Below, one piece after another: positions 20,409-32,000 of a stretch of DNA of 32,000 nt (positions are counted from its first letter, which is position 1; each line of letters opens with the position of its first letter). The notes beneath the pieces were generated by a model. The model ran no database searches and had not been told where the DNA came from. It saw nothing but the letters and a program-made list of their open reading frames with translations. The stretch comes from Parasynechococcus marenigrum WH 8102 (lineage in GTDB: Bacteria > Cyanobacteriota > Cyanobacteriia > PCC-6307 > Cyanobiaceae). The DNA lies in NCBI RefSeq assembly GCF_000195975.1, contig NC_005070.1, forward strand, positions 2,160,001-2,192,000, in the 5' to 3' direction. The position numbers and the translations under genes are program-made.

Positions 20409-20966
20409 TCAAGGGGTCGACATGCCGTCGAGATAGGCCGTACTGCCGAGATCGAGCAGACGGGCATCCTTGGCTGCCACTGCATCGTGCAACCTGCGGC
20501 GGTAGTCCGCCAGTCGGGCCGCCAGTGCCTCGTCTGCCACCGACAGGATCTGAGCAGCCAGCAATCCGGCATTGAGGCCACCGCCGATGGCCACCGTGGC
20601 AACGGGAATACCACCGGGCATCTGCACGATCGAGTGCAGCGAATCCACCCCGGACAGAGAACGGCTTCGGACGGGAACACCGATCACCGGCAGGGTGGTG
20701 AGGGCCGCCACCATCCCCGGCAGATGGGCGGCACCACCGGCACCGGCCACAATCACACCGAATCCCTCAGTGCGGGCCGCCTGGGCAAAGGCCACCATTT
20801 CCAGCGGTGTGCGGTGGGCTGACAACACCCGCACCTCCACCTCAACCCCCAGTTCCCGCAGGATCGCCGCGGCCGGTTCCATGGTCGGCAGATCGGAATC
20901 ACTGCCCATCACCACGGCCACGCGGGGAAAAACTGTCGTCACGAGAAAGACCGGCAAGACTGTCAT
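20409..20966 (-). CDS. purE: N5-carboxyaminoimidazole ribonucleotide mutase (PurE).
   Basis: '[15 protein letters not shown]', 'VLSAHRTP' and '[17 protein letters not shown]' are canonical PurE motifs. ATG 20966 gives 185 aa. The rest of the listed 638-aa ORF is an antisense artefact over nagA. Confidence 0.9.
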
Positions 20967-20999
20967 CGTCTCCCGCAGCGGCCCAGGCGGCCAGACCTG

Positions 21000-22148
21000 A
21001 TGCGACGGATCACCGATGTGCGCCTGCCCGCACCCCTCGGCAGCGAGACGGAGCGACCCCATTGGATCGGCCTCAACGACGAGGGCCGAATCGTCGAAAT
21101 CCAGCCCCAGATTGACGATGAAACCTGCCCTGGCTCGAGTTGGCACGGAGATTGGCTGAGCCCCCGCGGCATGGACCTGCAGATCAACGGTGGGCTCGGC
21201 CTGGCCTTCCCGGAACTGAGCGCGACGGATCTGCCGCGGCTGATCGGGCTGCTGGAGCTGCTCTGGGCCGATGGAGTCGAGGCCATCGCTCCAACCCTGG
21301 TGACCTGCGGCATCGCCCCACTTCGCCAGGCCCTGGCGGTGTTGCACCAGGCGCGACTGCAGCACCAACCGGGCCGCTGCCGATTGCTGGGAGCCCATCT
21401 GGAGGGCCCCTTTCTGGCGGAGGCCCGCCGCGGGGCCCATCCGATCGAGCATCTGGCAGCGCCCAGCCTGGAGGCCCTGGACCACCGCATCAGGGGATTT
21501 GAATCCGACATCGCCCTGGTGACCCTGGCGCCGGAACTTGCGGGGGCCAACACTGTGATCAGCGCGCTGCGTCAACGCAACATCACCGTGGCCCTGGGCC
21601 ACAGTGCCGCCAAAGCAGAACAGGCGGGGCAGGCTTTTGAGCAGGGCGTGGGGATGCTCACCCATGCCTTCAATGCCATGCCAGGCCTGCACCACCGGGC
21701 TCCGGGACCTGTGGGGGAAGCCTGCCGCCGCGGCGACATCGCCCTGGGCCTGATCGCCGACGGGGTGCACGTCGATCCGACGATGGCGGTGCTGCTGCAA
21801 CGGCTGGCGCCGGAACAGCTGGTGCTGGTGAGCGATGCCCTGGCCCCCTACGGCCTGGCGGATGGCGAGCATCGCTGGGACGAAAGGGTGCTGTTGGTGC
21901 AGAACGGCACCTGCCGGCTGGAGGACGGCACCCTGGCTGGCGTGACCCTGCCGCAGCTGGAGGGGGTGAAACGGCTGGCGACCTGGAGCGGCGCAGCAGG
22001 CGCAGCAATCTGGGGAGCCACGGTCGCACCACGACGGGTGATCGGCACCGCTGGGACCTTGAACGACGCGCTGGTGGGCCAGCGGCTGACCAACCTGCTG
22101 CGCTGGAGCCAACGCGAGGGGGAGCTCCACTGGGCCTGCGCTGCTTAA
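21000..22148 (+). CDS. nagA: N-acetylglucosamine-6-phosphate deacetylase.
   Basis: '[11 protein letters not shown]', 'HLEGPFL', 'ALGHSAA' and 'THAFNAMP' are amidohydrolase NagA motifs. Confidence 0.85.
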
Positions 22149-22175
22149 GATCCCGCCGAACACGACCCACCTTCG

Positions 22176-22889
22176 ATGGCCCCCGATCAACTGCTGGAGC
22201 AGAAACAGGCCGAAAAGCAGGAGGTGAAGGGCTACTTCGAGACCACGGGCTTCGATCGCTGGAATCGCATCTACAGCGAAAGCGATGACGTGAACAAGGT
22301 GCAGCGCAACATCCGCATCGGCCACCAGAAAACCGTGGATGAAGTGCTGGCCTGGATCAAGGACAGCGGCGAGCTCAACGAGGTGAGCTTCTGCGATGCC
22401 GGCTGCGGGGTCGGCAGCCTCAGCCTGCCGTTGGCCGAAATGGGGGCCGGTTCAATCAGCGCCAGCGACATCTCCGAAGCCATGGCGCAGGAGGCGGACC
22501 GCCGCGCCCGCGCGGCTGGTCTGGACATGGGCAAGCTGAACTTCTTTGCCAGTGATTTGGAGAGCCTCAGCGGCTCCTTCCACACGGTGTGCTGCCTGGA
22601 TGTATTCATTCACTACCCCCAGCAACCGGCCGAGGAAATGGTGAAACACCTCTGCAGCCTCACCGAAGAGCGCCTGATCGTGAGCTTTGCGCCCTACACC
22701 CTGCTGCTGGCACTGCTGAAGGGCATTGGCCAGCTGTTCCCCGGCCCCAGCAAAACCACCCGGGCCTACACCTTGAAAGAAGAGGGCATCGTCAAATCGG
22801 CGGAAGCCTGTGGCTTCAAGCTGGTGCGCCGCAGCCTGAACAAAGCACCCTTCTACTTCTCGCGGTTGATCGAATTCCGCAAGGCCTGA
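22176..22889 (+). CDS. chlM: Mg-protoporphyrin IX methyltransferase.
   Basis: '[18 protein letters not shown]', '[20 protein letters not shown]' and '[14 protein letters not shown]' closely resemble ChlM. Confidence 0.92.
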
Positions 22890-23800
22890 TCTCCCTCAAC
22901 TGAGGGATCCACCTGGAGTGTTGTCTCCCCCAAGTGAGGGAGACCCGAAAGCTGCCAGGCATGCAGCCGATAGCCCCCATCGCCAGGGGTTGCCGTCGCC
23001 GAAATCTCCCGGTTGAGCAAATAGAGCGGATCCCCCAGCAGCGGGCTGCCCAGCTGTGCCAGATGAATGCGGATCTGATGCGGTCGGCCTGTGGTGATCG
23101 TCACCTGCAAGCGATCGCCCTCAGCCGTTCGCTCCAAAAGCTCCAGCTCGGAACGAGCTGTGAGGCGTTTGCGGATCGGCTCCTGCTTGAGCGGTTCCGG
23201 CCCCCAGACCCAACCCAGCAGAGGATGCTGCCGCTCCACCACATCATTGGTGACCGTCAGGGTCTGCCCCTGCTCCAAACCCGGCACCCGCTGGGCCCAG
23301 GCCTGATACACCTTGCGGCAGCTGCCCTCTGGCCTGAACTGTTTGGACAGCGCCGCGCGGGTCATCGGATCCCGAGCACACACCTGCAAGCCGGAGGTGA
23401 ACCGCCCCAACCGATGCACCGGCCGCGCACCGGTGGGCTCCAACAGTGCCGTAAGCGTGTGGAGCAGAAAACCACCGCCAGGCATCACCGGCAGACCCGA
23501 AGGCTTGTTGATCACCAGCAGATCGCCGTCGTCATGGATCGTCTCCCATTGATCGGGGATCGCCTCCTCCAGCCAGGGAGGACGACGCCAGAGGACTGCT
23601 TCACCGCCAGCCAGCCGCCGATCCGCCGTCAAGCGTTGCCCATTGCAATCCAGTTCGCCGGAATGGATTCTTTGCCGCCAGACCTCTCCAGCGGAATGCT
23701 GATAGCGCTCCGCCAGCCAACAACTCAACCAAGTACCAGCTGCCCCTACCGGCACTCGGTCGCGATACGTCCAGCCGTCGTTGAACGCCGCTGGCTTCAA
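22853..23800 (-). CDS. RluA-family pseudouridine synthase.
   Basis: 'LLVINKPSGLPVMP', 'HRLGRFTSGLQV' (catalytic-Asp-type motif context) and 'GRPHQIRIHLA' are present. The TTG start overlaps the upstream response-regulator TGA as TTGA at 23797-23800. Confidence 0.82.
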   Translation of the reverse strand: MKPAAFNDGWTYRDRVPVGAAGTWLSCWLAERYQHSAGEVWRQRIHSGELDCNGQRLTADRRLAGGEAVLWRRPPWLEEAIPDQWETIHDDGDLLVINKPSGLPVMPGGGFLLHTLTALLEPTGARPVHRLGRFTSGLQVCARDPMTRAALSKQFRPEGSCRKVYQAWAQRVPGLEQGQTLTVTNDVVERQHPLLGWVWGPEPLKQEPIRKRLTARSELELLERTAEGDRLQVTITTGRPHQIRIHLAQLGSPLLGDPLYLLNREISATATPGDGGYRLHAWQLSGLPHLGETTLQVDPSVEGDQALRNSINREK

Positions 23801-24534
23801 GTCACCAGACGGTGCTCCAGCGCATAGCGCACCAGCTCCGTGCGACTGGAGGTGCCGGTCTTGTTGAACAGGCGACTCACGTACTTCTCCACATTGCGGA
23901 TCGACGTCTCCAGCTGACGGGCGATCTCTTTGTTCATCAATCCTTCCGCCACCAGCTGCAGCACACTCGCCTCCCGTGGGGTGAAGCTATGCACCACCGG
24001 CTCCTTCGAGGGCAGGGCCTCGGCCTGAGCAAGCAAGGAGCGGATCTCGGTGATCTGCTTCGCCATCTGGCCCATATCCGTATCCGCAAAGCGGGCCGCC
24101 TCCTGCAACAACCGCTGCTGTCGCTGGGCCACGTTGCGCACCCGCGCCACTAGCTCGTCCGGATCAAACGGCTTGGGGATGTAGTCATCCACGCCGGCCA
24201 GGTAACCCTGGGTGCGGTCCGCCGTCATGCCCTTGGCGGTGAGGAAGATCACCGGCGTGCCGCCGAGGCGTTCATCGGCCCGGAGCTTTTTCAGCAGACC
24301 GTAGCCATCCAACCGCGGCATCATCACGTCGGTGATCACCACATCCGGCAGCATCTGCTGCGCCTTGCTGAAACCTTCCTCTCCATCCACCGCCGTGGTC
24401 ACCTCAAACCCCTCGTCCTCGAGGTAGGCCTGCACCGCCGTACGCAGCCCAGGCTCGTCATCCACCAGCAGCAGCCGCGGTACCGGAGGAGGAGCCTCCT
24501 GCTCGTCGGTGCTGGGAAGGGGCGTATCGGTCAT
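23797..24534 (-). CDS. NarL/FixJ-type two-component response regulator (REC plus LuxR HTH). It is an orphan, with no kinase adjacent.
   Basis: The REC domain has 'RLLLVDDEP' and 'DVVITDVMMPRLDG'. The HTH is 'LTPREASVLQLVAEGLMNKEIARQLETSIRNVEKYVSRLFNKTG'. It is possibly a Ycf29/Rre1-type regulator, unverified. Confidence 0.88.
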   Translation of the reverse strand: MTDTPLPSTDEQEAPPPVPRLLLVDDEPGLRTAVQAYLEDEGFEVTTAVDGEEGFSKAQQMLPDVVITDVMMPRLDGYGLLKKLRADERLGGTPVIFLTAKGMTADRTQGYLAGVDDYIPKPFDPDELVARVRNVAQRQQRLLQEAARFADTDMGQMAKQITEIRSLLAQAEALPSKEPVVHSFTPREASVLQLVAEGLMNKEIARQLETSIRNVEKYVSRLFNKTGTSSRTELVRYALEHRLVT

Positions 24535-26305: not shown

Positions 26306-27103
26306 ATGACCAGCAGGGCCGAGCTTTCCGTTGGCACCGCAATCCAAGAGGGTTGGCGCGCCTTTCGCCTGGCTCCCTGGGCTTTCGTTGGCTTTGTGCT
26401 GCTCAGCACGCTGCTGGCCCAGTTGGCCAATGTTATTCCCCTGCTGGGTGCTCTGGTGGCGACGTTGGTGAACCTTTGGGGTGGTGTTGGCCTGATCCGC
26501 GGCTCATGGATTGCCCTGGGGGGCACTGCCCCTCGCTTTGAAGACTTCACCCGCTGGAACGGGGCTGCCGTCTGGCGACTATTCAGCCGACAGCTGGTGC
26601 TTGGCCTGCTGCTGCTGCCCATCGCCCTGCTGGTGATCGTCGTGGCCCTCAATGCCGCCGATGCCTGGACGGTGTTCGCTCCGCTGATGAATCTGGCTCT
26701 GACGGTGGACCCAAGCGATCCGCAGCTGGCCGACGCCGGCAGTGCTGCCGCCCTGGAGCTGGCCCTGAATTTCAGCCACAGCCCCCTGGCATTGCTGACG
26801 GTGGCGATGGGCTGGCTGTTCGCCACCTACATCCAGGTGAACCAAAGCTTCCTCGGATTCATTGCCCTGCTGGAAGGCCGTAACCCAATCGCCACGATTC
26901 GACGCGGGATCACCGTGGTGCAAGGTCAGTGGTGGCAGGTGTTCGGCCTGTTGATCCTGCAGGTATTGATCCTGATGCTGGGAGTGTTGGCCTGTGTGGT
27001 GGGTCTGGTGGCCGCTGCTCCGGTGTGTCTTTGCATCACAGGGGCCGCTTACCGACAACTGTTCGGCCAGGACGACGCAGCTGGCCTGCTCAAGAATCAG
27101 TGA
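26306..27103 (+). CDS. Integral membrane protein of unknown function; the last high-GC gene before the island.
   Basis: 265 aa with an ATG start and about six hydrophobic segments, for example 'WAFVGFVLLSTLLAQLANVIPLLGALVATLV' and 'VFGLLILQVLILMLGVLACVVGLVAAAPVCLCI'. Confidence 0.65.
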   Translation: MTSRAELSVGTAIQEGWRAFRLAPWAFVGFVLLSTLLAQLANVIPLLGALVATLVNLWGGVGLIRGSWIALGGTAPRFEDFTRWNGAAVWRLFSRQLVLGLLLLPIALLVIVVALNAADAWTVFAPLMNLALTVDPSDPQLADAGSAAALELALNFSHSPLALLTVAMGWLFATYIQVNQSFLGFIALLEGRNPIATIRRGITVVQGQWWQVFGLLILQVLILMLGVLACVVGLVAAAPVCLCITGAAYRQLFGQDDAAGLLKNQ

Positions 27104-27338
27104 TCGACTTGCGGACCTTCAACAAGATCCGGTGAGAGATCAGTCCAATCAACCCGCATTTGCGTCAGCGCAAGAACACGACCAAACAACGTTGGCGCAG
27201 TTTTGGCACGCTTTGAATCATCGATGAAGCGGTGCAGCCAGTTAACCGGCCTTAGACTGAGTAAGAGATGCAATGACTTTGCCAACCAAAACGCCAGAAA
27301 ATTACACCAATCGAAAAGTATAGACATTATTTGAGAAG

Positions 27339-29294
27339 CTAGATATTATCAATTAAATCAACAGCCGAGACTTCAGATACCTCGAGATCTACTCCCTCGA
27401 GAAGCAACCTCCGGGAACCATCAATCACAAGAAGCCCATCTCCAATCTTTCTGAATTGAGTTTCGTCAATGCTATCGACATGGACACGGTCAATCCCGAC
27501 TTGAAAGTCGAGAACCCGATCTAGCCCCCTCGAAGGCCGGAAAACGTCAGAACCTTTGCCCCCAGTTAGCAGGTCAACCCCTTTGCCTCCGTTGAGATGA
27601 TCGTCTCCACGTCTTCCGTTGAGAACATCATCACCATTTTTACCTAGAAGTCGGTTATTGCCATCATTACCAGTCAAAGCATTATTGCGCCGATCGCCAA
27701 ATGCGTCTGGATTTCCATAACCAAAAAGCCACACATTCTTAGCAGCGGAATTAACTAGATTGAGACGCACGTCAATGAGCGATACAATCTTGTTGCCCAA
27801 GTTTGCTTGTGTTTTATCGTCGAAAAATGGGGTAGAAACGGAAACAATTCCAGACTCCAACTGAGAGGCATCATGCGATACGAATCGATCTGCATTTTCC
27901 CCCCAACTAACGATTGAGCCATTGTCCTTCAAAGCTGCAAACGAAGTCCCGGAGCTGAAGACATGCACGACATTCGATTGCAAGCTTGTTTCTACAGAAC
28001 TGCTGTCACCACCTTTAGCTGGCGCGCCCCAGGCAACAACTGATCCATCATCCTTTAAAGCAGCAAATGCTGAATTATTAGAAAAAATCTCAACAACCCC
28101 CGAAGATAACTGACTGGAGACATTGGAGCTGTCTCCACCGGTTATTTCTTTTCCCCAAGTCACAACAGAGCCATCACTTTTTAGAGCGGCCATGGATTGA
28201 CCGGTCGAGTAGATCGACACGACGCCTGAACTGAGCTCTGACGTGACCTCAGCAGGCAAAATGTCTGGATCCTCTCGCCAACCACCCCAACTCACAACAG
28301 ATCCATCACGCTTTAAGGCAGCAAATCCAGTCCAGCATGAAAAAAGATCAACGACATCACCACTGATTTGATCGCGAACCGCCCGACTATCGCCGCCCTG
28401 ATAATAACGACCCCATGTCACAACGGATCCATTCTTTTTCAATGCCGCAAATGCCTTATAGGAGGGAACAACTTTTTCAATACCCTTCTTCAAGCGTTTT
28501 GAATCATTGTATAACTCCTGACCGGGCTCAAGACTGATATCACCATTGGGGAATACTCGATCAAATGTCACTTTTGTGTCATCCTCAACTTCATCCGAAT
28601 AACTCACTCGCCCCAACTCACCGCCGGACGTCTTGTTACCAATAACTTTTACTCTTCCGTCACCAAGCAGGAAGGCAAAAGCTTGATGATTCGCGATAAT
28701 TTGCGAGACGTTATTCAAACGCTCAACCAATTCCAGATCACTATCATCGCGCACGCTTCGATTACCCCAAGTAATTACACTCCCGTCGCCGCGAAGAGCC
28801 GCAAAAGTTTCACTCATATTGTCAATCTCGGTAAATGTTGACACAACTGATTCAACATTATTGATATTTTCTTGTGAGACTTCCCCAAAGGTTCCTCCTC
28901 TTTCAGGATCACCCCAAACAACCAAAGTCTTGTCGTCCTTTAAAGCGGCAAAGGCAGTGCCCGTAGAGAAGATATTCACCACTCCTCCTTTCAGGAGAGG
29001 TTTGACGTTTTCACTATTTCCGCCTTGCCTCCTATCACCCCATGTAATAACTGAACCATCTGTCTTCAACGCAGCAAATGCTTTACGAGTCGCAAAAATT
29101 TGTGCAACATCAGCATCAAGCTGATCAATGACCTTACTGGAATCACCACCAGTCTTTGGATCACCCCATGTCACGACCGATCCATCGTCGCGGATCGCTG
29201 CAAAAGCCGCCTTATTTCGTATCTCATACGCCGTTCGTCCTGATTCAGAAACGGGCGTTTTGGTGAACAGAATTAGAGGTTGAAGACCGTTCAA
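27339..29294 (-). CDS. RCC1/BLIP-II-like beta-propeller repeat protein with C-terminal RTX (hemolysin-type Ca2+-binding) repeats; probable type I secretion substrate.
   Basis: 651-aa ORF. Ten 'FAALKxDGSVvtWG' repeats are followed by GGxGxD nonapeptides. There is no N-terminal signal peptide. The start is TTG 29294, and there is no in-frame ATG in the first ~150 codons. Confidence 0.8.
   Translation of the reverse strand: MNGLQPLILFTKTPVSESGRTAYEIRNKAAFAAIRDDGSVVTWGDPKTGGDSSKVIDQLDADVAQIFATRKAFAALKTDGSVITWGDRRQGGNSENVKPLLKGGVVNIFSTGTAFAALKDDKTLVVWGDPERGGTFGEVSQENINNVESVVSTFTEIDNMSETFAALRGDGSVITWGNRSVRDDSDLELVERLNNVSQIIANHQAFAFLLGDGRVKVIGNKTSGGELGRVSYSDEVEDDTKVTFDRVFPNGDISLEPGQELYNDSKRLKKGIEKVVPSYKAFAALKKNGSVVTWGRYYQGGDSRAVRDQISGDVVDLFSCWTGFAALKRDGSVVSWGGWREDPDILPAEVTSELSSGVVSIYSTGQSMAALKSDGSVVTWGKEITGGDSSNVSSQLSSGVVEIFSNNSAFAALKDDGSVVAWGAPAKGGDSSSVETSLQSNVVHVFSSGTSFAALKDNGSIVSWGENADRFVSHDASQLESGIVSVSTPFFDDKTQANLGNKIVSLIDVRLNLVNSAAKNVWLFGYGNPDAFGDRRNNALTGNDGNNRLLGKNGDDVLNGRRGDDHLNGGKGVDLLTGGKGSDVFRPSRGLDRVLDFQVGIDRVHVDSIDETQFRKIGDGLLVIDGSRRLLLEGVDLEVSEVSAVDLIDNI
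27540..27680 (-). repeat. RTX nonapeptide (GGxGxDxUx) calcium-binding repeats, about 5 units.
   Basis: The stretch 'LTGNDGNNRLLGKNGDDVLNGRRGDDHLNGGKGVDLLTGGKGSDVF' (aa 539-585) is followed by 'VLDFQVGIDRVHV', a typical RTX C-terminal secretion-region context. Confidence 0.85.
27885..29210 (-). repeat. Ten tandem ~42-aa coding repeats (propeller blades).
   Basis: The FAAL cores sit at aa 31, 73, 115, 164, 206, 282, 324, 368, 410 and 452. Their spacings are 42, 42, 49, 42, 76, 42, 44, 42 and 42 aa. The consensus is aFAALKxDGSVvtWG-x6-GGDSs-V-x3-L-x2-gVv-iFSt. Confidence 0.85.
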
Positions 29295-29603
29295 AAGGCT
29301 TTTTTACAAGATCTAACTGATCCACTTTACACGAATCATCCATATGCCTTGGAGAAAGCGTCTGAAAGAGGAGTTAACCCTATGTTGTACAGCTAGTACC
29401 GCATAAACACGAACATCACCGAAGCGGGAACATGCTCATACTCGGGACGTGGTAATCAATCAAAAGATCGTCTCGGCGAGAATTCCTTTAGGGGAAATGA
29501 AGCACAATTGAGGGTGTATTCTGATGGCGACAACAAGACTCACCTGGGCAAAATAGGACTCATTTAACAATCATAGAAAATCGCATGAACTGAACAATGA
29601 ATA

Positions 29604-31331
29604 TTATTTCATGCCATAATTCTGGTCGCAACGGTCCTGTAATAGCTCCAGATAGGGGGTGCCTGAAAAGCCCTTTTCCCAAACCGACCGGCATCGTAAA
29701 AGGGTACTTTGGTCAAGTTCTGAGATTCGTCTCTTGATTTCCTGATCAGAAATTTGCAATCGAGATTTTTCTATCTCATGGGCAGCTCCTGAACCTTGTA
29801 TAAAATTATCTAGTGATTGATGATAATCAGACTTCATATCAACTGGTAAAATAGTATCGATAAAATCAGGCGATATGCTAATGCCAGTTATCCTGTTACA
29901 GCCTGGTCTGTTCTCCTTAAATGGAATTGGATCCGACTTTCCTCCAATATATTTGACTTGGTTAGCATGGGGCTTGAACATACGATATGAGTATTCGAGT
30001 ACAGAGCGATTATGACGATGCAGTACAACAGAAGTATGGGATTTAGAATAAAATTGTTTTTCGGAAGGCACGATAGCACCTGGTGCCTCAAATCCAATTT
30101 CTGTCAAATTTAAGTCTTGAGGATTACCTACAGCATCAATTACTCGGGCAGAAGATTGTCGAAACACAGGCGCATGACAACGCAGCTCAACAAGGTCAGA
30201 TCGGTAGGCAACAAAGCTTTTTACACTGCTTTTCAAGCGAAAATCAAGACCCCTGGATAATGGGGCTGAGAATTGATCCTCATGAAAACAGTTAACCCAG
30301 TTACAGGATAAACAATCAAAACCCTTGCAACTCTCTAAATACGATTCAACCTTCATGGGAAAGGGCTGAGCCACCCAGAACTCGTCAACATCTACAAACA
30401 AGCAATATGATGAATGTGTCACCGAAGCGGCATAATGATAAAGCTTTGAATACGAACTTCTCTGTGTCAACTCAACATGAACATCATCAGTGCTGATAAC
30501 ATGAATCCGGGGATCAGCAGCTGCAAGCTGCAGGGCAAAGTCGTAGGTCTTGTCGCTTGAGTTGTTAATACCAATGAATATATTAGAAAAACCAAGAAAG
30601 AGATAGTGGTGAACGAATTCGTGAAGATAAGGCGCTTCATCTGAAGCAATGCAAATAACATCGCAGCGGTAAGATTTAGGTATAGACCGATCACGCCAGA
30701 GCGAACGCGCTTCCAGAATTCGATGAGCGCTTAAATGTTGAAACTTAAGCTTCTGGATACCGCGCTTTGCCGTGAGAAGCTTTGACTCTAAATTAGATTT
30801 CCTCTTCGTTGACGATATCTTATTGGTTACTTGAGATTCAACCATCCGAAAGGCCCTTAAGAAAATATCGTCAGAATCCTCGAACACCCCGCATGCTAAT
30901 TGAGTTTCCAAGACCGCAGTGCAAACCTTGGAGTTAGCCTTCTTCTTGCTCATACATTTTCTCGCATACTGCAGCGCTAATTCATAGCGACCCATCATCT
31001 GCAATCCTCTCGCACCAATCCAAAGCAAGCTGTAACTATCCGGCTTGAATCTCAAAGCACGCCTCAACAATGATTCAAATTCCGAAAGATTCGCTTTGGA
31101 GCGCAAGGCTTTCAATCGACAAATATATAATTGAATATTATCCGAATTTGATAGCAGAAGTATTTCTGCAATCTTATCGGCATCACCATATAACTTATTG
31201 CGCATTAAAAGAGAAAAAGCCTGCCAGGCAAGAGAATGTCTTTTTGAAAGACGTAGAAGGTTAGAGTCTTTATGCAGCAAGTTTTGCAGGCTCTCAACAT
31301 CTTGAAGAGCAACGGCTTGACGGATATTCAT
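29604..31331 (-). CDS. Two-domain protein: an N-terminal TPR-like helical repeat region and a GT92 / Glyco_tranf_2_4-like glycosyltransferase domain.
   Basis: ATG start, 575 aa. Aa ~222-320, 'CDVICIASDEAPYLHEFVHHYLFLGFSNIFIGINNSSDKT...LFVDVDEFWV', has the NE-x-YL-EW-type N-terminal motif and a DxD (DVDEF, nt 30378-30392). Aa ~30-165 are amphipathic helix pairs. Confidence 0.7.
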   Translation of the reverse strand: MNIRQAVALQDVESLQNLLHKDSNLLRLSKRHSLAWQAFSLLMRNKLYGDADKIAEILLLSNSDNIQLYICRLKALRSKANLSEFESLLRRALRFKPDSYSLLWIGARGLQMMGRYELALQYARKCMSKKKANSKVCTAVLETQLACGVFEDSDDIFLRAFRMVESQVTNKISSTKRKSNLESKLLTAKRGIQKLKFQHLSAHRILEARSLWRDRSIPKSYRCDVICIASDEAPYLHEFVHHYLFLGFSNIFIGINNSSDKTYDFALQLAAADPRIHVISTDDVHVELTQRSSYSKLYHYAASVTHSSYCLFVDVDEFWVAQPFPMKVESYLESCKGFDCLSCNWVNCFHEDQFSAPLSRGLDFRLKSSVKSFVAYRSDLVELRCHAPVFRQSSARVIDAVGNPQDLNLTEIGFEAPGAIVPSEKQFYSKSHTSVVLHRHNRSVLEYSYRMFKPHANQVKYIGGKSDPIPFKENRPGCNRITGISISPDFIDTILPVDMKSDYHQSLDNFIQGSGAAHEIEKSRLQISDQEIKRRISELDQSTLLRCRSVWEKGFSGTPYLELLQDRCDQNYGMK

Positions 31332-31443
31332 GTCTTAATTACGGTACTTTCTATATTAGCTCAAATGATTTGATTCAATGCCAATATAGGACGCTGCATG
31401 CCAAGCAAACTGCCTTGACGCCACGCATCAGCAGTTAGCATGC

Positions 31444-31472
31444 TTGACAACGCTAGCTAGGACAATTAATGT
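31444..31472 (+). promoter_or_regulatory. Candidate sigma70-type promoter for the sulfotransferase gene.
   Basis: TTGACA (31444-31449), a 17-nt spacer, then TAATGT (31467-31472), which ends 19 nt upstream of the GTG at 31492. It lies in a 160-bp AT-rich divergent intergenic region. Confidence 0.35.
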
Positions 31473-31491
31473 ATAGTTAATTTTTTTATAA

Positions 31492-32000
31492 GTGCTTCAA
31501 ACAAAGGCTTGGATTTATCTTACAGTACAAAAGACAGGATCGACATTCCTTTCAAAAAAACTAATTGAGATTTACGGGCAAGCAGCATTTTCTAAAGACC
31601 GGAAACACGGCATACAAAAGAAATCAACATCTAAATCTAAAATCATCACAATCAGAGATCCATTCGATTACTACTTTTCATTATGGTCATATGGCCTTGA
31701 TGGAAAAGGGGGATTCAGCAATAAGTTAAGGATCTCAAATCCGAGTCTTGCCGAGAAAATATATGGAAAAAAAACCAAATCATGCTTCTCTCATTTTTTA
31801 GACCTAGCCCTCTCATTCCCAGGCAGAAACTCTCAAAGTGAGGTTAGCTGGCTACCTCGAAGTACTGATTTATACACTGCTCGAATTCTGACAATGCTTG
31901 TGCCTCAAGATAAAATTGAACGGTTTAGCAGTGAATTAGATTGCGACTTTTCTGGAAAGTCTATTGCAAAGTCACTCAATGAACTCTTGCCAGAAGTGAT
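31492..32000 (+). CDS. Sulfotransferase (PAPS-dependent, Sulfotransfer_2/3-like). It is 3'-truncated by the window end and is not in the supplied ORF track.
   Basis: My own translation of frame 1 gives (GTG)LQTKAWIYLTVQKTGSTFLSKKLIEIYG...KSKIITIRDPFDYYFSLWSYGLDG...LLPEV, open to nt 32000 and preceded by TAA at 31489-31491. 'QKTGST' matches the 5'-PSB loop and 'IRDPFDYYFSLWSY' the 3'-PB motif of sulfotransferases. Confidence 0.7.
   Translation, partial: MLQTKAWIYLTVQKTGSTFLSKKLIEIYGQAAFSKDRKHGIQKKSTSKSKIITIRDPFDYYFSLWSYGLDGKGGFSNKLRISNPSLAEKIYGKKTKSCFSHFLDLALSFPGRNSQSEVSWLPRSTDLYTARILTMLVPQDKIERFSSELDCDFSGKSIAKSLNELLPEV

Follow-up and report, generated by a model that had tools for sequence, protein, structure and literature searches.

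The propeller-RTX gene and its cassette

A complete open reading frame (ORF) lies on the minus strand at 27339..29294 of the window, the 32,000-nucleotide stretch of Parasynechococcus marenigrum WH 8102 DNA that was analyzed, and is given in the ORF list as 651 aa plus stop. It starts with TTG, an in-frame TAA is found three codons upstream, and the start site of its orthologs is at the same position. The first 399 aa are a 100% match to a sequence given in the supplementary material of an exoproteome study (Christie-Oleza et al. 2015, PMC4949707). Based on this match, the product is NP_898382.1 of Synechococcus sp. WH8102, which had been annotated previously. The protein is acidic (pI 4.8) and contains a single Cys, and inspection of its N-terminus revealed no Sec-type signal peptide. 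It was found on 19 contigs of the contig index. SYNW2289, a locus tag guessed from the accession numbering, was rejected because it belongs to a response regulator, which is probably the gene at 23797-24534 of the window. The tag of the propeller-RTX gene is probably among SYNW2292-2295, and a literature search with these four tags gave no matches. Promoter and terminator scans performed no better than chance level.

The gene is located in a low-GC islet (27104..32000, no strand assigned), which was delimited with a composition profile and has a GC content of 0.435 compared to 0.631 in the remaining window. The islet runs past the window end and was seen in full in L002. Upstream, in the same cassette, is a minus-strand gene at 29604..31331 that encodes 575 aa with a Glyco_tranf_2_4 domain (Pfam, 48.5 bits against a cut-off of 27.5) and whose product is named a TPR repeat protein in one source. 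This gene is syntenic in the orthologs, with identities of 87% and 68%. Together with a gene for a 269-aa sulfotransferase-like protein, the propeller-RTX gene and this TPR-glycosyltransferase gene make up a low-GC cassette that is conserved and co-diverging in the orthologs.

Repeats, caps, and RTX tail

Ten BLIP-II/RCC1_2-type repeats occupy aa 23-465 (27900..29228, minus strand), as defined by motif positions, Pfam, AlphaFold2, and Foldseek. The sequence-only reading of this DNA had placed ten 'FAALKxDGSVVTWG' cores at aa 31 to 452, and the cores were found at exactly these positions (aa 31, 73, 115, 164, 206, 282, 324, 368, 410, and 452). It had also described the repeats as very regular with a period of 42 aa. 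This held for six of the nine core-to-core spacings (42, 42, 49, 42, 76, 42, 44, 42, and 42), but not for the spacings of 49, 76, and 44, nor for repeat 5, which is degenerate (FAFLLGDGRVKVIG) and has no Trp. TRF detected no tandem repeat at the DNA level in the array, indicating that the blades are old and diverged. Pfam RCC1_2 (PF13540) scored 91.9 bits against a cut-off of 22 (E 1.5e-26), and both this score and that of HemolysinCabind, given below, are far above chance expectation. The domain-level Pfam model WD40_RLD (PF25390) scored 110.3 bits, under its cut-off of 150.

The spacing of 76 instead of 42 marks a clade-specific insertion between repeats 5 and 6, at aa 220-270 (28485..28637, minus strand). 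It adds 34 aa to the normal 42-aa repeat, is restricted to the closest orthologs, and has a pLDDT below 50 at aa 235-251. The array is flanked on both sides by caps. The N-terminal cap, TPVSESGRTAYEIRNKA, covers aa 13-29 (29208..29258, minus strand) and was recognized by a conserved motif and the structural model. Its motif, 'PGRTxxExRN', is kept ahead of repeat 1 in relatives of unrelated architecture, and its pLDDT of 84-94 in the propeller-only model shows that it is structured. The C-terminal cap, SGIVSVSTPFFDD, covers aa 466-495 (27810..27899, minus strand), contributes an eleventh A-strand only, and was assigned from conservation and the model. Its motif, 'SGVVxFAxPFxDD', is kept behind the tenth WG across the relatives, and a strand is predicted at residues 483-486 with a block-mean pLDDT of about 90 in the propeller-only model.

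Behind the propeller, aa 496-532 (27699..27809, minus strand) form a linker with pre-RTX strands, modeled by AlphaFold2 as short strands with pLDDT 64-86. This is followed by an RTX calcium-binding block at aa 533-586 (27537..27698, minus strand), which was identified with a regular expression, Pfam HemolysinCabind (PF00353, 41.2 bits against a cut-off of 23), and PDB matches. In keeping with the count of about five GGxGxD nonapeptides read from the sequence, the block consists of six in register, the four at aa 551-586 being canonical and the two before them (aa 533-550) degenerate. The PDB matches were to CyaA (6.5e-21 with the single sequence, 2e-43 with a profile), serralysins, lipases, and AlgE R-modules, so the tail is a genuine RTX tail. 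In the AlphaFold2 model, the block is composed of short strands spaced nine residues apart. The C-terminal domain that comes after it (aa 587-651, 65 aa; 27342..27536, minus strand) was delimited by family conservation and the model. A 'DxxxDFxxGxDxI' motif and an acidic, hydrophobic end are kept in the family, and the sister-clade proteins terminate in D plus three hydrophobic residues. Block-mean pLDDT in this domain is about 60-93 and is lowest in the last 20 or so residues. From its conserved sequence, the domain is presumed to be a capping structure plus an uncleaved type I secretion signal.

Two candidate identities for the whole protein were rejected. For serralysin, NF035945 scored 45 bits against a cut-off of 500 and aligned only at profile positions 321-402, which correspond to the C-terminal domain. 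The other candidate was a pore-forming RTX cytolysin. The database name 'hemolysin-type' might hint at this, and the RTX repeats do share homology with the repeats of CyaA and of HlyA-type toxins. However, NCBIfam RTX_toxin scored 35.2 bits against a cut-off of 1000 and matched only the repeat region, the N-terminal 500 residues are a propeller and not a hydrophobic pore-forming domain, and an acyltransferase gene is absent nearby. We consider a cytolysin extremely improbable.

Predicted closure of the ten-repeat array

AlphaFold2 modeled each 42-aa repeat as a short helix and three beta-strands. The blades are shorter than those of classical RCC1, as had been remarked from the sequence, although a three-stranded blade of about 42 aa is the known BLIP-II type and not a novel one. 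The full-length model had a pLDDT of 82 and a pTM of 0.77. When the propeller was modeled alone, these values were 87 and 0.88, the five models were concordant, and the propeller behaved as a single rigid body.

The Foldseek top match was BLIP-II, with a probability of 1.0 and E values from 1e-13 to 1e-15, and the probability was also 1.0 for UVR8, RCC1, and HERC. Identity to BLIP-II was 22-24%, with a TMt of 0.52-0.60 and an rmsd of 7.3-8.6 A. Over all seven-bladed structures TMt was 0.32-0.60, and because it was at most 0.60 at this rmsd, a closed seven-bladed ring is absent. The Foldseek fits of the models also led us to reject a 7+3 arrangement of blades. Searching the PDB with the single sequence recovered the RTX tail only, and RCC1 and HERC2 were reached only with the family profile (E 5e-15 for the RCC1-like domains of HERC2 and 1.6e-6 for RCC1). 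The kinship with RCC1 and BLIP-II read from the sequence is thus borne out by PF13540, by the family profile, and by the Foldseek ranking.

Among 120 relatives, exactly ten repeats were found in 75 arrays and five repeats in none, counts that carry a bias against short arrays since the relatives were picked by similarity to a ten-repeat query. In many relatives all nine spacings are 42 aa, and each array has one N-cap and one C-cap. Ten, the repeat number first read from the sequence, is both the motif count here and a conserved property of the relatives. Since the propeller models as a rigid body, does not fit a seven-bladed ring, has relatives with ten-repeat arrays, and is bounded by conserved caps, the array likely closes as a single ten-bladed ring. 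This conclusion draws on pTM, repeat statistics, and the caps.

Structure prediction had been proposed as a way to distinguish one ring from two packed five-bladed propellers (5+5). AlphaFold2 gave propeller blades, and its model scores are in keeping with one ring. A pTM of 0.88 is also compatible with two tightly packed rings, and the only large insertion in this clade sits exactly between repeats 5 and 6. However, in the sister clades the insertions are found at other junctions (4/5 and 6/7), the relatives with uniform spacing have no special middle linker, and a five-repeat array occurs in none of the relatives, whose arrays have a single pair of caps. A 5+5 arrangement is, in our judgment, unlikely. 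To our knowledge, there is no experimental structure with ten blades in the BLIP-II/RCC1 lineage, and in 2013 sortilin was reportedly the only known ten-bladed propeller. If the single ring is correct, the module has a blade number for which this lineage offers no solved structure, and a stable ten-bladed closure would be of interest to structural biologists.

Extracellular detection, proposed role, and known systems

Exoproteome mass spectrometry of WH8102 culture medium detected two peptides of NP_898382.1 (Christie-Oleza et al. 2015, PMC4949707), which match aa 520-536 and 616-628 of the protein, the flanking residues included. The sequence-only reading relied on the protein being present in extracellular or surface fractions, and these peptides place it in the exoproteome. 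The protein was of low abundance and seen in four of 15 samples; it was 3.3x up in co-culture with the heterotroph Ruegeria pomeroyi and down or absent in the dark (PMC4949707). The low abundance would fit an intracellular protein that reached the medium through cell lysis, as half of the axenic exoproteome at 4 days consisted of cytoplasmic proteins (PMC4949707). However, it was detected in three of three co-culture replicates, where leakage was lower, and in the dark, with leakage rising, it was down or absent. An RTX block and a C-terminal domain of this kind are also typical of exported proteins. Lysis is therefore a very unlikely source.

Several traits of type I substrates are present: there is no cleavable N-terminal signal, the RTX block is at aa 533-586 of 651, and the protein was detected outside the cell. 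When 28 ORFs, which cover the large ORFs of the window, were scanned with Pfam, none matched an ABC exporter, membrane-fusion protein, or TolC, in agreement with the sequence-only reading, and no T1SS genes were next to family members at any neighborhood examined. A type I exporter is therefore assumed. In WH8102, the RTX motility proteins reportedly depend on ABC-type export genes.

The account that we favor, and consider probable as a whole, is that of an RTX exoprotein with type I export, Ca2+-driven folding, and a ten-repeat binding platform of the BLIP-II branch. The unfolded protein would be exported C-terminus first through a T1SS whose genes lie in another part of the genome. Once outside, the RTX block would bind Ca2+ and thereby fold into a six-turn beta-roll, which would then nucleate folding of the passenger. 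The passenger would be a discrete ten-repeat BLIP-II-branch module with three strands per 42-aa blade and N- and C-caps, most likely one ten-bladed ring acting as a protein- or glycan-binding platform. We infer a role as an interaction protein that is set free or held at the cell surface by Ca2+ bridges, which fits the induction in co-culture with a heterotroph and the decrease or absence in the dark. Going by synteny, the protein may be functionally tied to the neighboring transferases, and the co-inherited sulfotransferase-like and glycosyltransferase genes may cooperate with it or modify it.

The cassette could also point to a structural glycoprotein, attached to the surface through Ca2+ bridges to the outer membrane as proposed for SwmA, modified by the neighboring transferases, and altering the surface toward grazers or phages. 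The conserved sulfotransferase-like and glycosyltransferase genes are in keeping with this, as is the neighborhood of a distant relative, which contains sulfotransferase, NeuB, and BNR genes. EDTA releases SwmA, a glycosylated RTX protein of the S-layer in this strain (PMC3034196), avoidance of grazers and phages has been put forward as the function of island glycosyltransferases (PMC2441476), and the exoproteome authors proposed envelope restructuring (PMC4949707). However, the protein came from the medium, where its abundance was low, and other family members have unrelated neighborhoods. A structural surface glycoprotein is thus possible but rather doubtful. BLIP-II being the nearest solved structure, we also considered an inhibitor that would bind, and thereby block, a secreted enzyme of competing bacteria. 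The protein was induced in co-culture with a hydrolase-secreting heterotroph, and one ortholog adjoins a class A beta-lactamase-like gene. Nevertheless, the only contig with this neighbor is 4 kb long, the neighbor has the look of a flanking core gene, and BLIP-II has a low identity, differs in blade number, and fits poorly overall. An inhibitor is decidedly unlikely.

An interaction protein with a ten-repeat binding platform thus remains our preferred reading. More tentatively, and with somewhat less than even confidence, we propose that the module stands by itself as a capped propeller with ten blades, within the BLIP-II/RCC1 lineage, and is an extracellular binding module widely reused by bacteria and apparently by some dinoflagellate proteins. 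In marine Synechococcus, it would be carried by a cassette gained through horizontal transfer, whose sulfotransferase-like enzyme and glycosyltransferase would work at the cell surface, either on the propeller or together with it.

The sequence-only reading was correct but not new. The gene is a real, correctly read RTX-propeller exoprotein in a model genome from 2003, the protein is annotated, and both domains and export have been in print since 2015. Christie-Oleza et al. had noted the haemolysin-like part, an 'alpha-tubulin suppressor-like' (RCC1) domain, and export (PMC4949707). Their NP_898382.1 is the same protein with no sequence difference, but that study gives neither the number of repeats nor the type of blade, and it does not describe the caps, the fold prediction, or the conserved gene cassette. 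The ligand of the propeller when Synechococcus meets heterotrophs and its possible modification by transferases bear on the surface and interactions of abundant marine phototrophs. Resolving blade closure, ligand, or transferase role would overturn no current view.

The ten-repeat module was also found in Nostoc, Microcystis, Cylindrospermopsis, Shewanella, and Vibrio, and in the WH8102 paralogs SYNW1564 and SYNW1565, which are likewise exoproteins (PMC4949707). Carriers are named 'DUF4347 domain-containing', 'bluetail domain-containing putative surface protein', 'Calx-beta domain-containing', and 'Ig-like domain-containing'. Over 70-75% of the query, their propeller module shows 37-50% identity, and it has the same N-cap, ten 42-aa repeats, and the same C-cap, whereas the appended domains differ (cadherin, Calx-beta, Big, flagellin-like, and others) and most carriers have no RTX tail. 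A scan of genome contigs with the protein gave one weak match, to the RTX part only, in an Oscillatoriales MAG.

BLIP-II resembles the protein described here in its three-stranded blades of about 40 aa, but it is secreted via a Sec signal and has no RTX tail. It is the closest structural match (Streptomyces exfoliatus; PDB 1jtd, 3qhy, 3qi0) and has Pfam RCC1_2 in common, with seven blades compared to ten repeats here and a poor global fit. The RCC1-like domains of eukaryotes (RCC1, HERC1/2, UVR8, and RPGR) have homologous repeats, but these domains are intracellular, are built from seven four-stranded blades of 50-60 aa, and reach a TMt of only 0.32-0.49 to the protein. At the other end of the protein, serralysin proteases, Pseudomonas lipases, AlgE R-modules, and SwmA, an RTX protein from the same organism, share a nonapeptide beta-roll near the C-terminus with a C-terminal domain behind it. 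Like other RTX type I substrates with a non-toxin passenger, the protein is acidic and has no N-terminal signal. In contrast to the named substrates, its exporter genes are not adjacent, and its passenger is a propeller instead of an enzyme or S-layer domain.

The repeat gene and its extracellular product

The ORF at 27339-29294 on the minus strand encodes 651 aa and begins with TTG, with an in-frame TAA three codons upstream. Since orthologs and more distant family members of the product, NP_898382.1, start at the equivalent position, the TTG start is credible and a longer N-terminus is ruled out. The identical protein occurs on 19 contigs of the contig index, while the exact-sequence cluster collection gave no match, possibly because the start is translated as Leu in one case and Met in the other.

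A motif scan placed ten FAALKxDGSVVTWG cores at aa 31, 73, 115, 164, 206, 282, 324, 368, 410 and 452, exactly as the sequence-only reading had them. That reading also called the array very regular, which is true of the dominant 42-aa period but not of the whole: spacings are 42, 42, 49, 42, 76, 42, 44, 42 and 42, repeat 5 lacks its tryptophan, and a 34-aa insertion follows it. Tandem Repeats Finder detected no DNA-level tandem repeat in the gene and, therefore, the blades are ancient and diverged, not freshly amplified. Downstream of repeat 10 lie a short conserved segment, a linker, six in-register RTX nonapeptides (aa 533-586; four with canonical GGxGxD) and a 65-aa C-terminal domain. The protein has a pI of 4.8, one cysteine and no Sec-type signal peptide at its N-terminus.

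Pfam assigned RCC1_2 (PF13540; 91.9 bits, cut-off 22) and HemolysinCabind (PF00353; 41.2 bits, cut-off 23), and the domain-level model of seven-bladed RCC1-like proteins, PF25390, was not passed (110 against 150). Searched as a single sequence against PDB sequences, the protein matched only RTX blocks (CyaA, serralysins, lipases and AlgE R-modules); its tail is homologous to substrates of type I secretion systems (T1SS). A family profile built from 24 full-length members reached the RCC1-like domains of HERC2 (E 5e-15) and RCC1 (E 1.6e-6). NCBIfam models for serralysin, RTX toxin, ZapA and others matched the RTX region only, with scores far under their cut-offs; the annotated name, "hemolysin-type calcium-binding protein", therefore reflects the calcium-binding repeats, not a cytolysin. 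Given that the RTX toxin model is confined in this way, a cytolysin is extremely improbable.

Marine Synechococcus exoproteomes were studied by Christie-Oleza et al. (2015; PMC4949707), who list NP_898382.1 in their supplementary tables together with its sequence and two peptides that were identified. The 399 printed residues are 100% identical to the window ORF, and the peptides NVWLFGYGNPDAFGDRR and KIGDGLLVIDGSR map to aa 520-536 and 616-628 with agreeing flanking residues; the window protein is therefore NP_898382.1. Presence in the extracellular fraction, a test set by the sequence-only reading, is documented by these two peptides in the WH8102 exoproteome, where the protein was found outside the cell at low abundance in 4 of 15 samples (PMC4949707). 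Leakage of an intracellular protein through lysis is a very unlikely source. NP_898382.1 rose 3.3-fold when Ruegeria pomeroyi DSS-3 was grown alongside and, like the other interaction proteins, was down-regulated in the dark (PMC4949707).

SYNW1564 and SYNW1565, two paralogs in WH8102 that share these repeats, are likewise exported (PMC4949707). The C-terminal peptides detected for them end at aa 1154 and aa 714, respectively (PMC4949707), and both proteins terminate in a common peptide, GKP[DE]LTAED[LV]TLLA. The printed part of either sequence shows no RTX repeats, and their export signal may differ from the RTX type. The RCC1-RTX gene probably carries a locus tag within SYNW2292-2295, because SYNW2289 belongs to a response regulator and a response-regulator gene lies at 23797-24534 of the window; our literature search found no paper naming the tags SYNW2292-2295.

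Predicted fold and blade closure

AlphaFold2 was run on the full-length protein with a family alignment (mean pLDDT 82.3, pTM 0.77) and on aa 1-500 with 77 diverse relatives (pLDDT 86.9, pTM 0.88; five models spanning 84.5-86.9). The only uncertain parts of the shorter model were its termini and the insertion at aa 235-251. Each repeat was predicted as a short helix and three strands, and the RTX block had short strands at nine-residue intervals, the pattern expected of a beta-roll. BLIP-II was the top Foldseek match of both models (E 1e-13 to 1e-15, identity 22-24%), followed by UVR8, RCC1, HERC and RPGR domains, all at probability 1.0. In BLIP-II, a known propeller, the blades are three-stranded and about 40 aa long. 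Thus, the blades are indeed shorter than those of classical RCC1, as had been noticed, and at about 42 aa and three strands they belong to this established type.

Target-normalised TM-scores were 0.52-0.60 for BLIP-II and 0.32-0.49 for other seven-bladed structures (rmsd about 7-15 Å), and the best query-normalised score against solved structures was 0.37. A 7+3 arrangement, with a closed seven-blade sub-ring, was excluded by the poor global fit to every seven-bladed structure. Among the structures solved up to April 2026, Foldseek found none that matches the overall geometry.

We consider it likely that the array closes as a single ten-bladed ring, as suggested by four indirect lines from the models and the sequences. 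First, a pTM of 0.88 across 500 residues indicates one rigid body. Second, arrays of exactly ten repeats number 75 among the best 120 relatives, against 24 of nine repeats (frequently ten in which one core has degenerated, as in NP_898382.1), eight of eleven and none of five; because the ranking used similarity to a ten-repeat query, this sample is biased against short arrays. Third, all nine spacings are exactly 42 aa in many relatives, leaving no special middle linker, and insertions in the sister clade fall at junctions 4/5 and 6/7, not 5/6. Fourth, a single conserved N-cap (PGRTxxExRN) precedes every array and a single conserved C-cap (SGVVxFAxPFxDD) follows it, the latter being only the first strand of an eleventh repeat, which is the pattern expected if the ends meet to close one ring. 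Two packed five-bladed rings are an unlikely alternative, opposed by the lack of five-repeat arrays in that sample, by the position of the insertions and the even spacing, and by the single pair of caps.

By sequence, the capped ten-repeat module is a unit that recurs in many architectures. The N-cap, ten 42-aa repeats and C-cap are shared by highly dissimilar proteins from Nostoc, Microcystis, Cylindrospermopsis, Shewanella, Vibrio and Methylobacter (P0006-P0120), and by Symbiodinium gene models labelled HERC2-like. In a few arrays the count rises to 13-17 repeats, perhaps as 7+7 or 7+10 combinations.

The low-GC islet

GC content falls from 0.63 to about 0.44 at about 27,100, and the RCC1-RTX gene itself has a GC of 0.466. 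The composition profile and longer assemblies delimit a low-GC islet (27104-32000 of the window; 4800-11300 of contig L002) in the order 76-aa ORF, RCC1-RTX gene, three more genes and 94-aa ORF, with core genes beyond. The three genes encode 575 aa with a Glyco_tranf_2_4 domain (a TPR repeat protein in one source), 255 aa with no family match, and 269 aa resembling sulfotransferases, slightly under the Pfam cut-off. The 76-aa ORF (27097-27327, minus strand), called in all assemblies and also without family match, directly adjoins the downstream end of the RCC1-RTX gene, where the GC content changes, and overlaps the end of a 265-aa membrane-protein gene on the opposite strand.

The order of the four larger genes is conserved in orthologous contigs (GC 0.43-0.45) and their divergence runs in parallel: L013 and L011 show identities of 89% and 69% for the RCC1-RTX gene, 87% and 68% for the 575-aa gene, 92% and 75% for the 255-aa gene, and 88% and 71% for the 269-aa gene. 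Judged from these sequences, they are a co-inherited cassette, probably acquired horizontally. In contig L012 (2478-5155), no 574-aa glycosyltransferase gene was called between the 261-aa and RCC1-RTX genes, only an 87-aa ORF on the opposite strand, which may mean that this population has a broken transferase. On L014, a 4-kb metagenome contig, a 313-aa class A beta-lactamase-like gene (PF13354; 2773-3714) adjoins a 67%-identical ortholog. It is probably a flanking core gene, and curious since BLIP-II inhibits class A beta-lactamases.

Among distant proteins of the same architecture, two adjoin a peptidase S9 gene and def. Another, P0091 (L008 1-9600), has two sulfotransferases, a NeuB-type sialic-acid synthase fusion, an ABC-2 permease and a BNR/sialidase-like protein nearby, making this another surface-glycan neighbourhood. 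No ABC exporter, membrane-fusion protein or TolC gene occurs in the window or beside the relatives examined, in agreement with the earlier conclusion that the exporter must be encoded elsewhere. Also in the window, a 638-aa ORF (20409-22325, minus strand) has an AIR carboxylase (PurE-type) domain at aa 468-613 only; the long stretch before it may result from a GTG start called too far upstream in this high-GC DNA, or from a fusion.

Proposed export, role and relation to known systems

Sister-clade C-termini end in an acidic residue and three hydrophobic residues (e.g., GYDIFV, ENLVV), resembling the extreme C-terminal motif of protease/lipase type I substrates, whereas the VDLIDNI end of NP_898382.1 is looser. 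If the scheme reviewed for RTX proteins applies (PMC3034196), the protein would be exported unfolded through an ABC, membrane-fusion protein and TolC channel, steered by its uncleaved C-terminal region, and outside the cell Ca2+ would drive beta-roll folding, followed by folding of the propeller. The exoprotein would then either be released or stay attached to the envelope through Ca2+ bridges, as proposed for SwmA, the glycosylated RTX S-layer protein of WH8102.

By analogy with BLIP-II and RCC1, the propeller most plausibly serves as a platform for binding; an enzyme inhibitor like BLIP-II is improbable. Both the induction by a heterotroph and the surface-modifying enzymes of the cassette suggest that the protein takes part in cell-cell or cell-surface interactions. 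A mainly structural function as a surface glycoprotein, which is compatible with an interaction role, is possible but doubtful.

The gene was already annotated in a model genome, and both its domains and its export were reported in 2015. The sequence-only observation is confirmed and its interpretation supported; the details added here are the BLIP-II-type blades, the capped ten-repeat module across many architectures, the conserved low-GC cassette with two putative transferases and, probably, the ten-bladed ring. Sortilin has been called the only known ten-bladed propeller (Kopec and Lupas 2013; PMC3797127) and, thus, such closure in an RCC1/BLIP-II protein would lack an experimental example; if true, it would be a structural variant for the RCC1/BLIP-II lineage.
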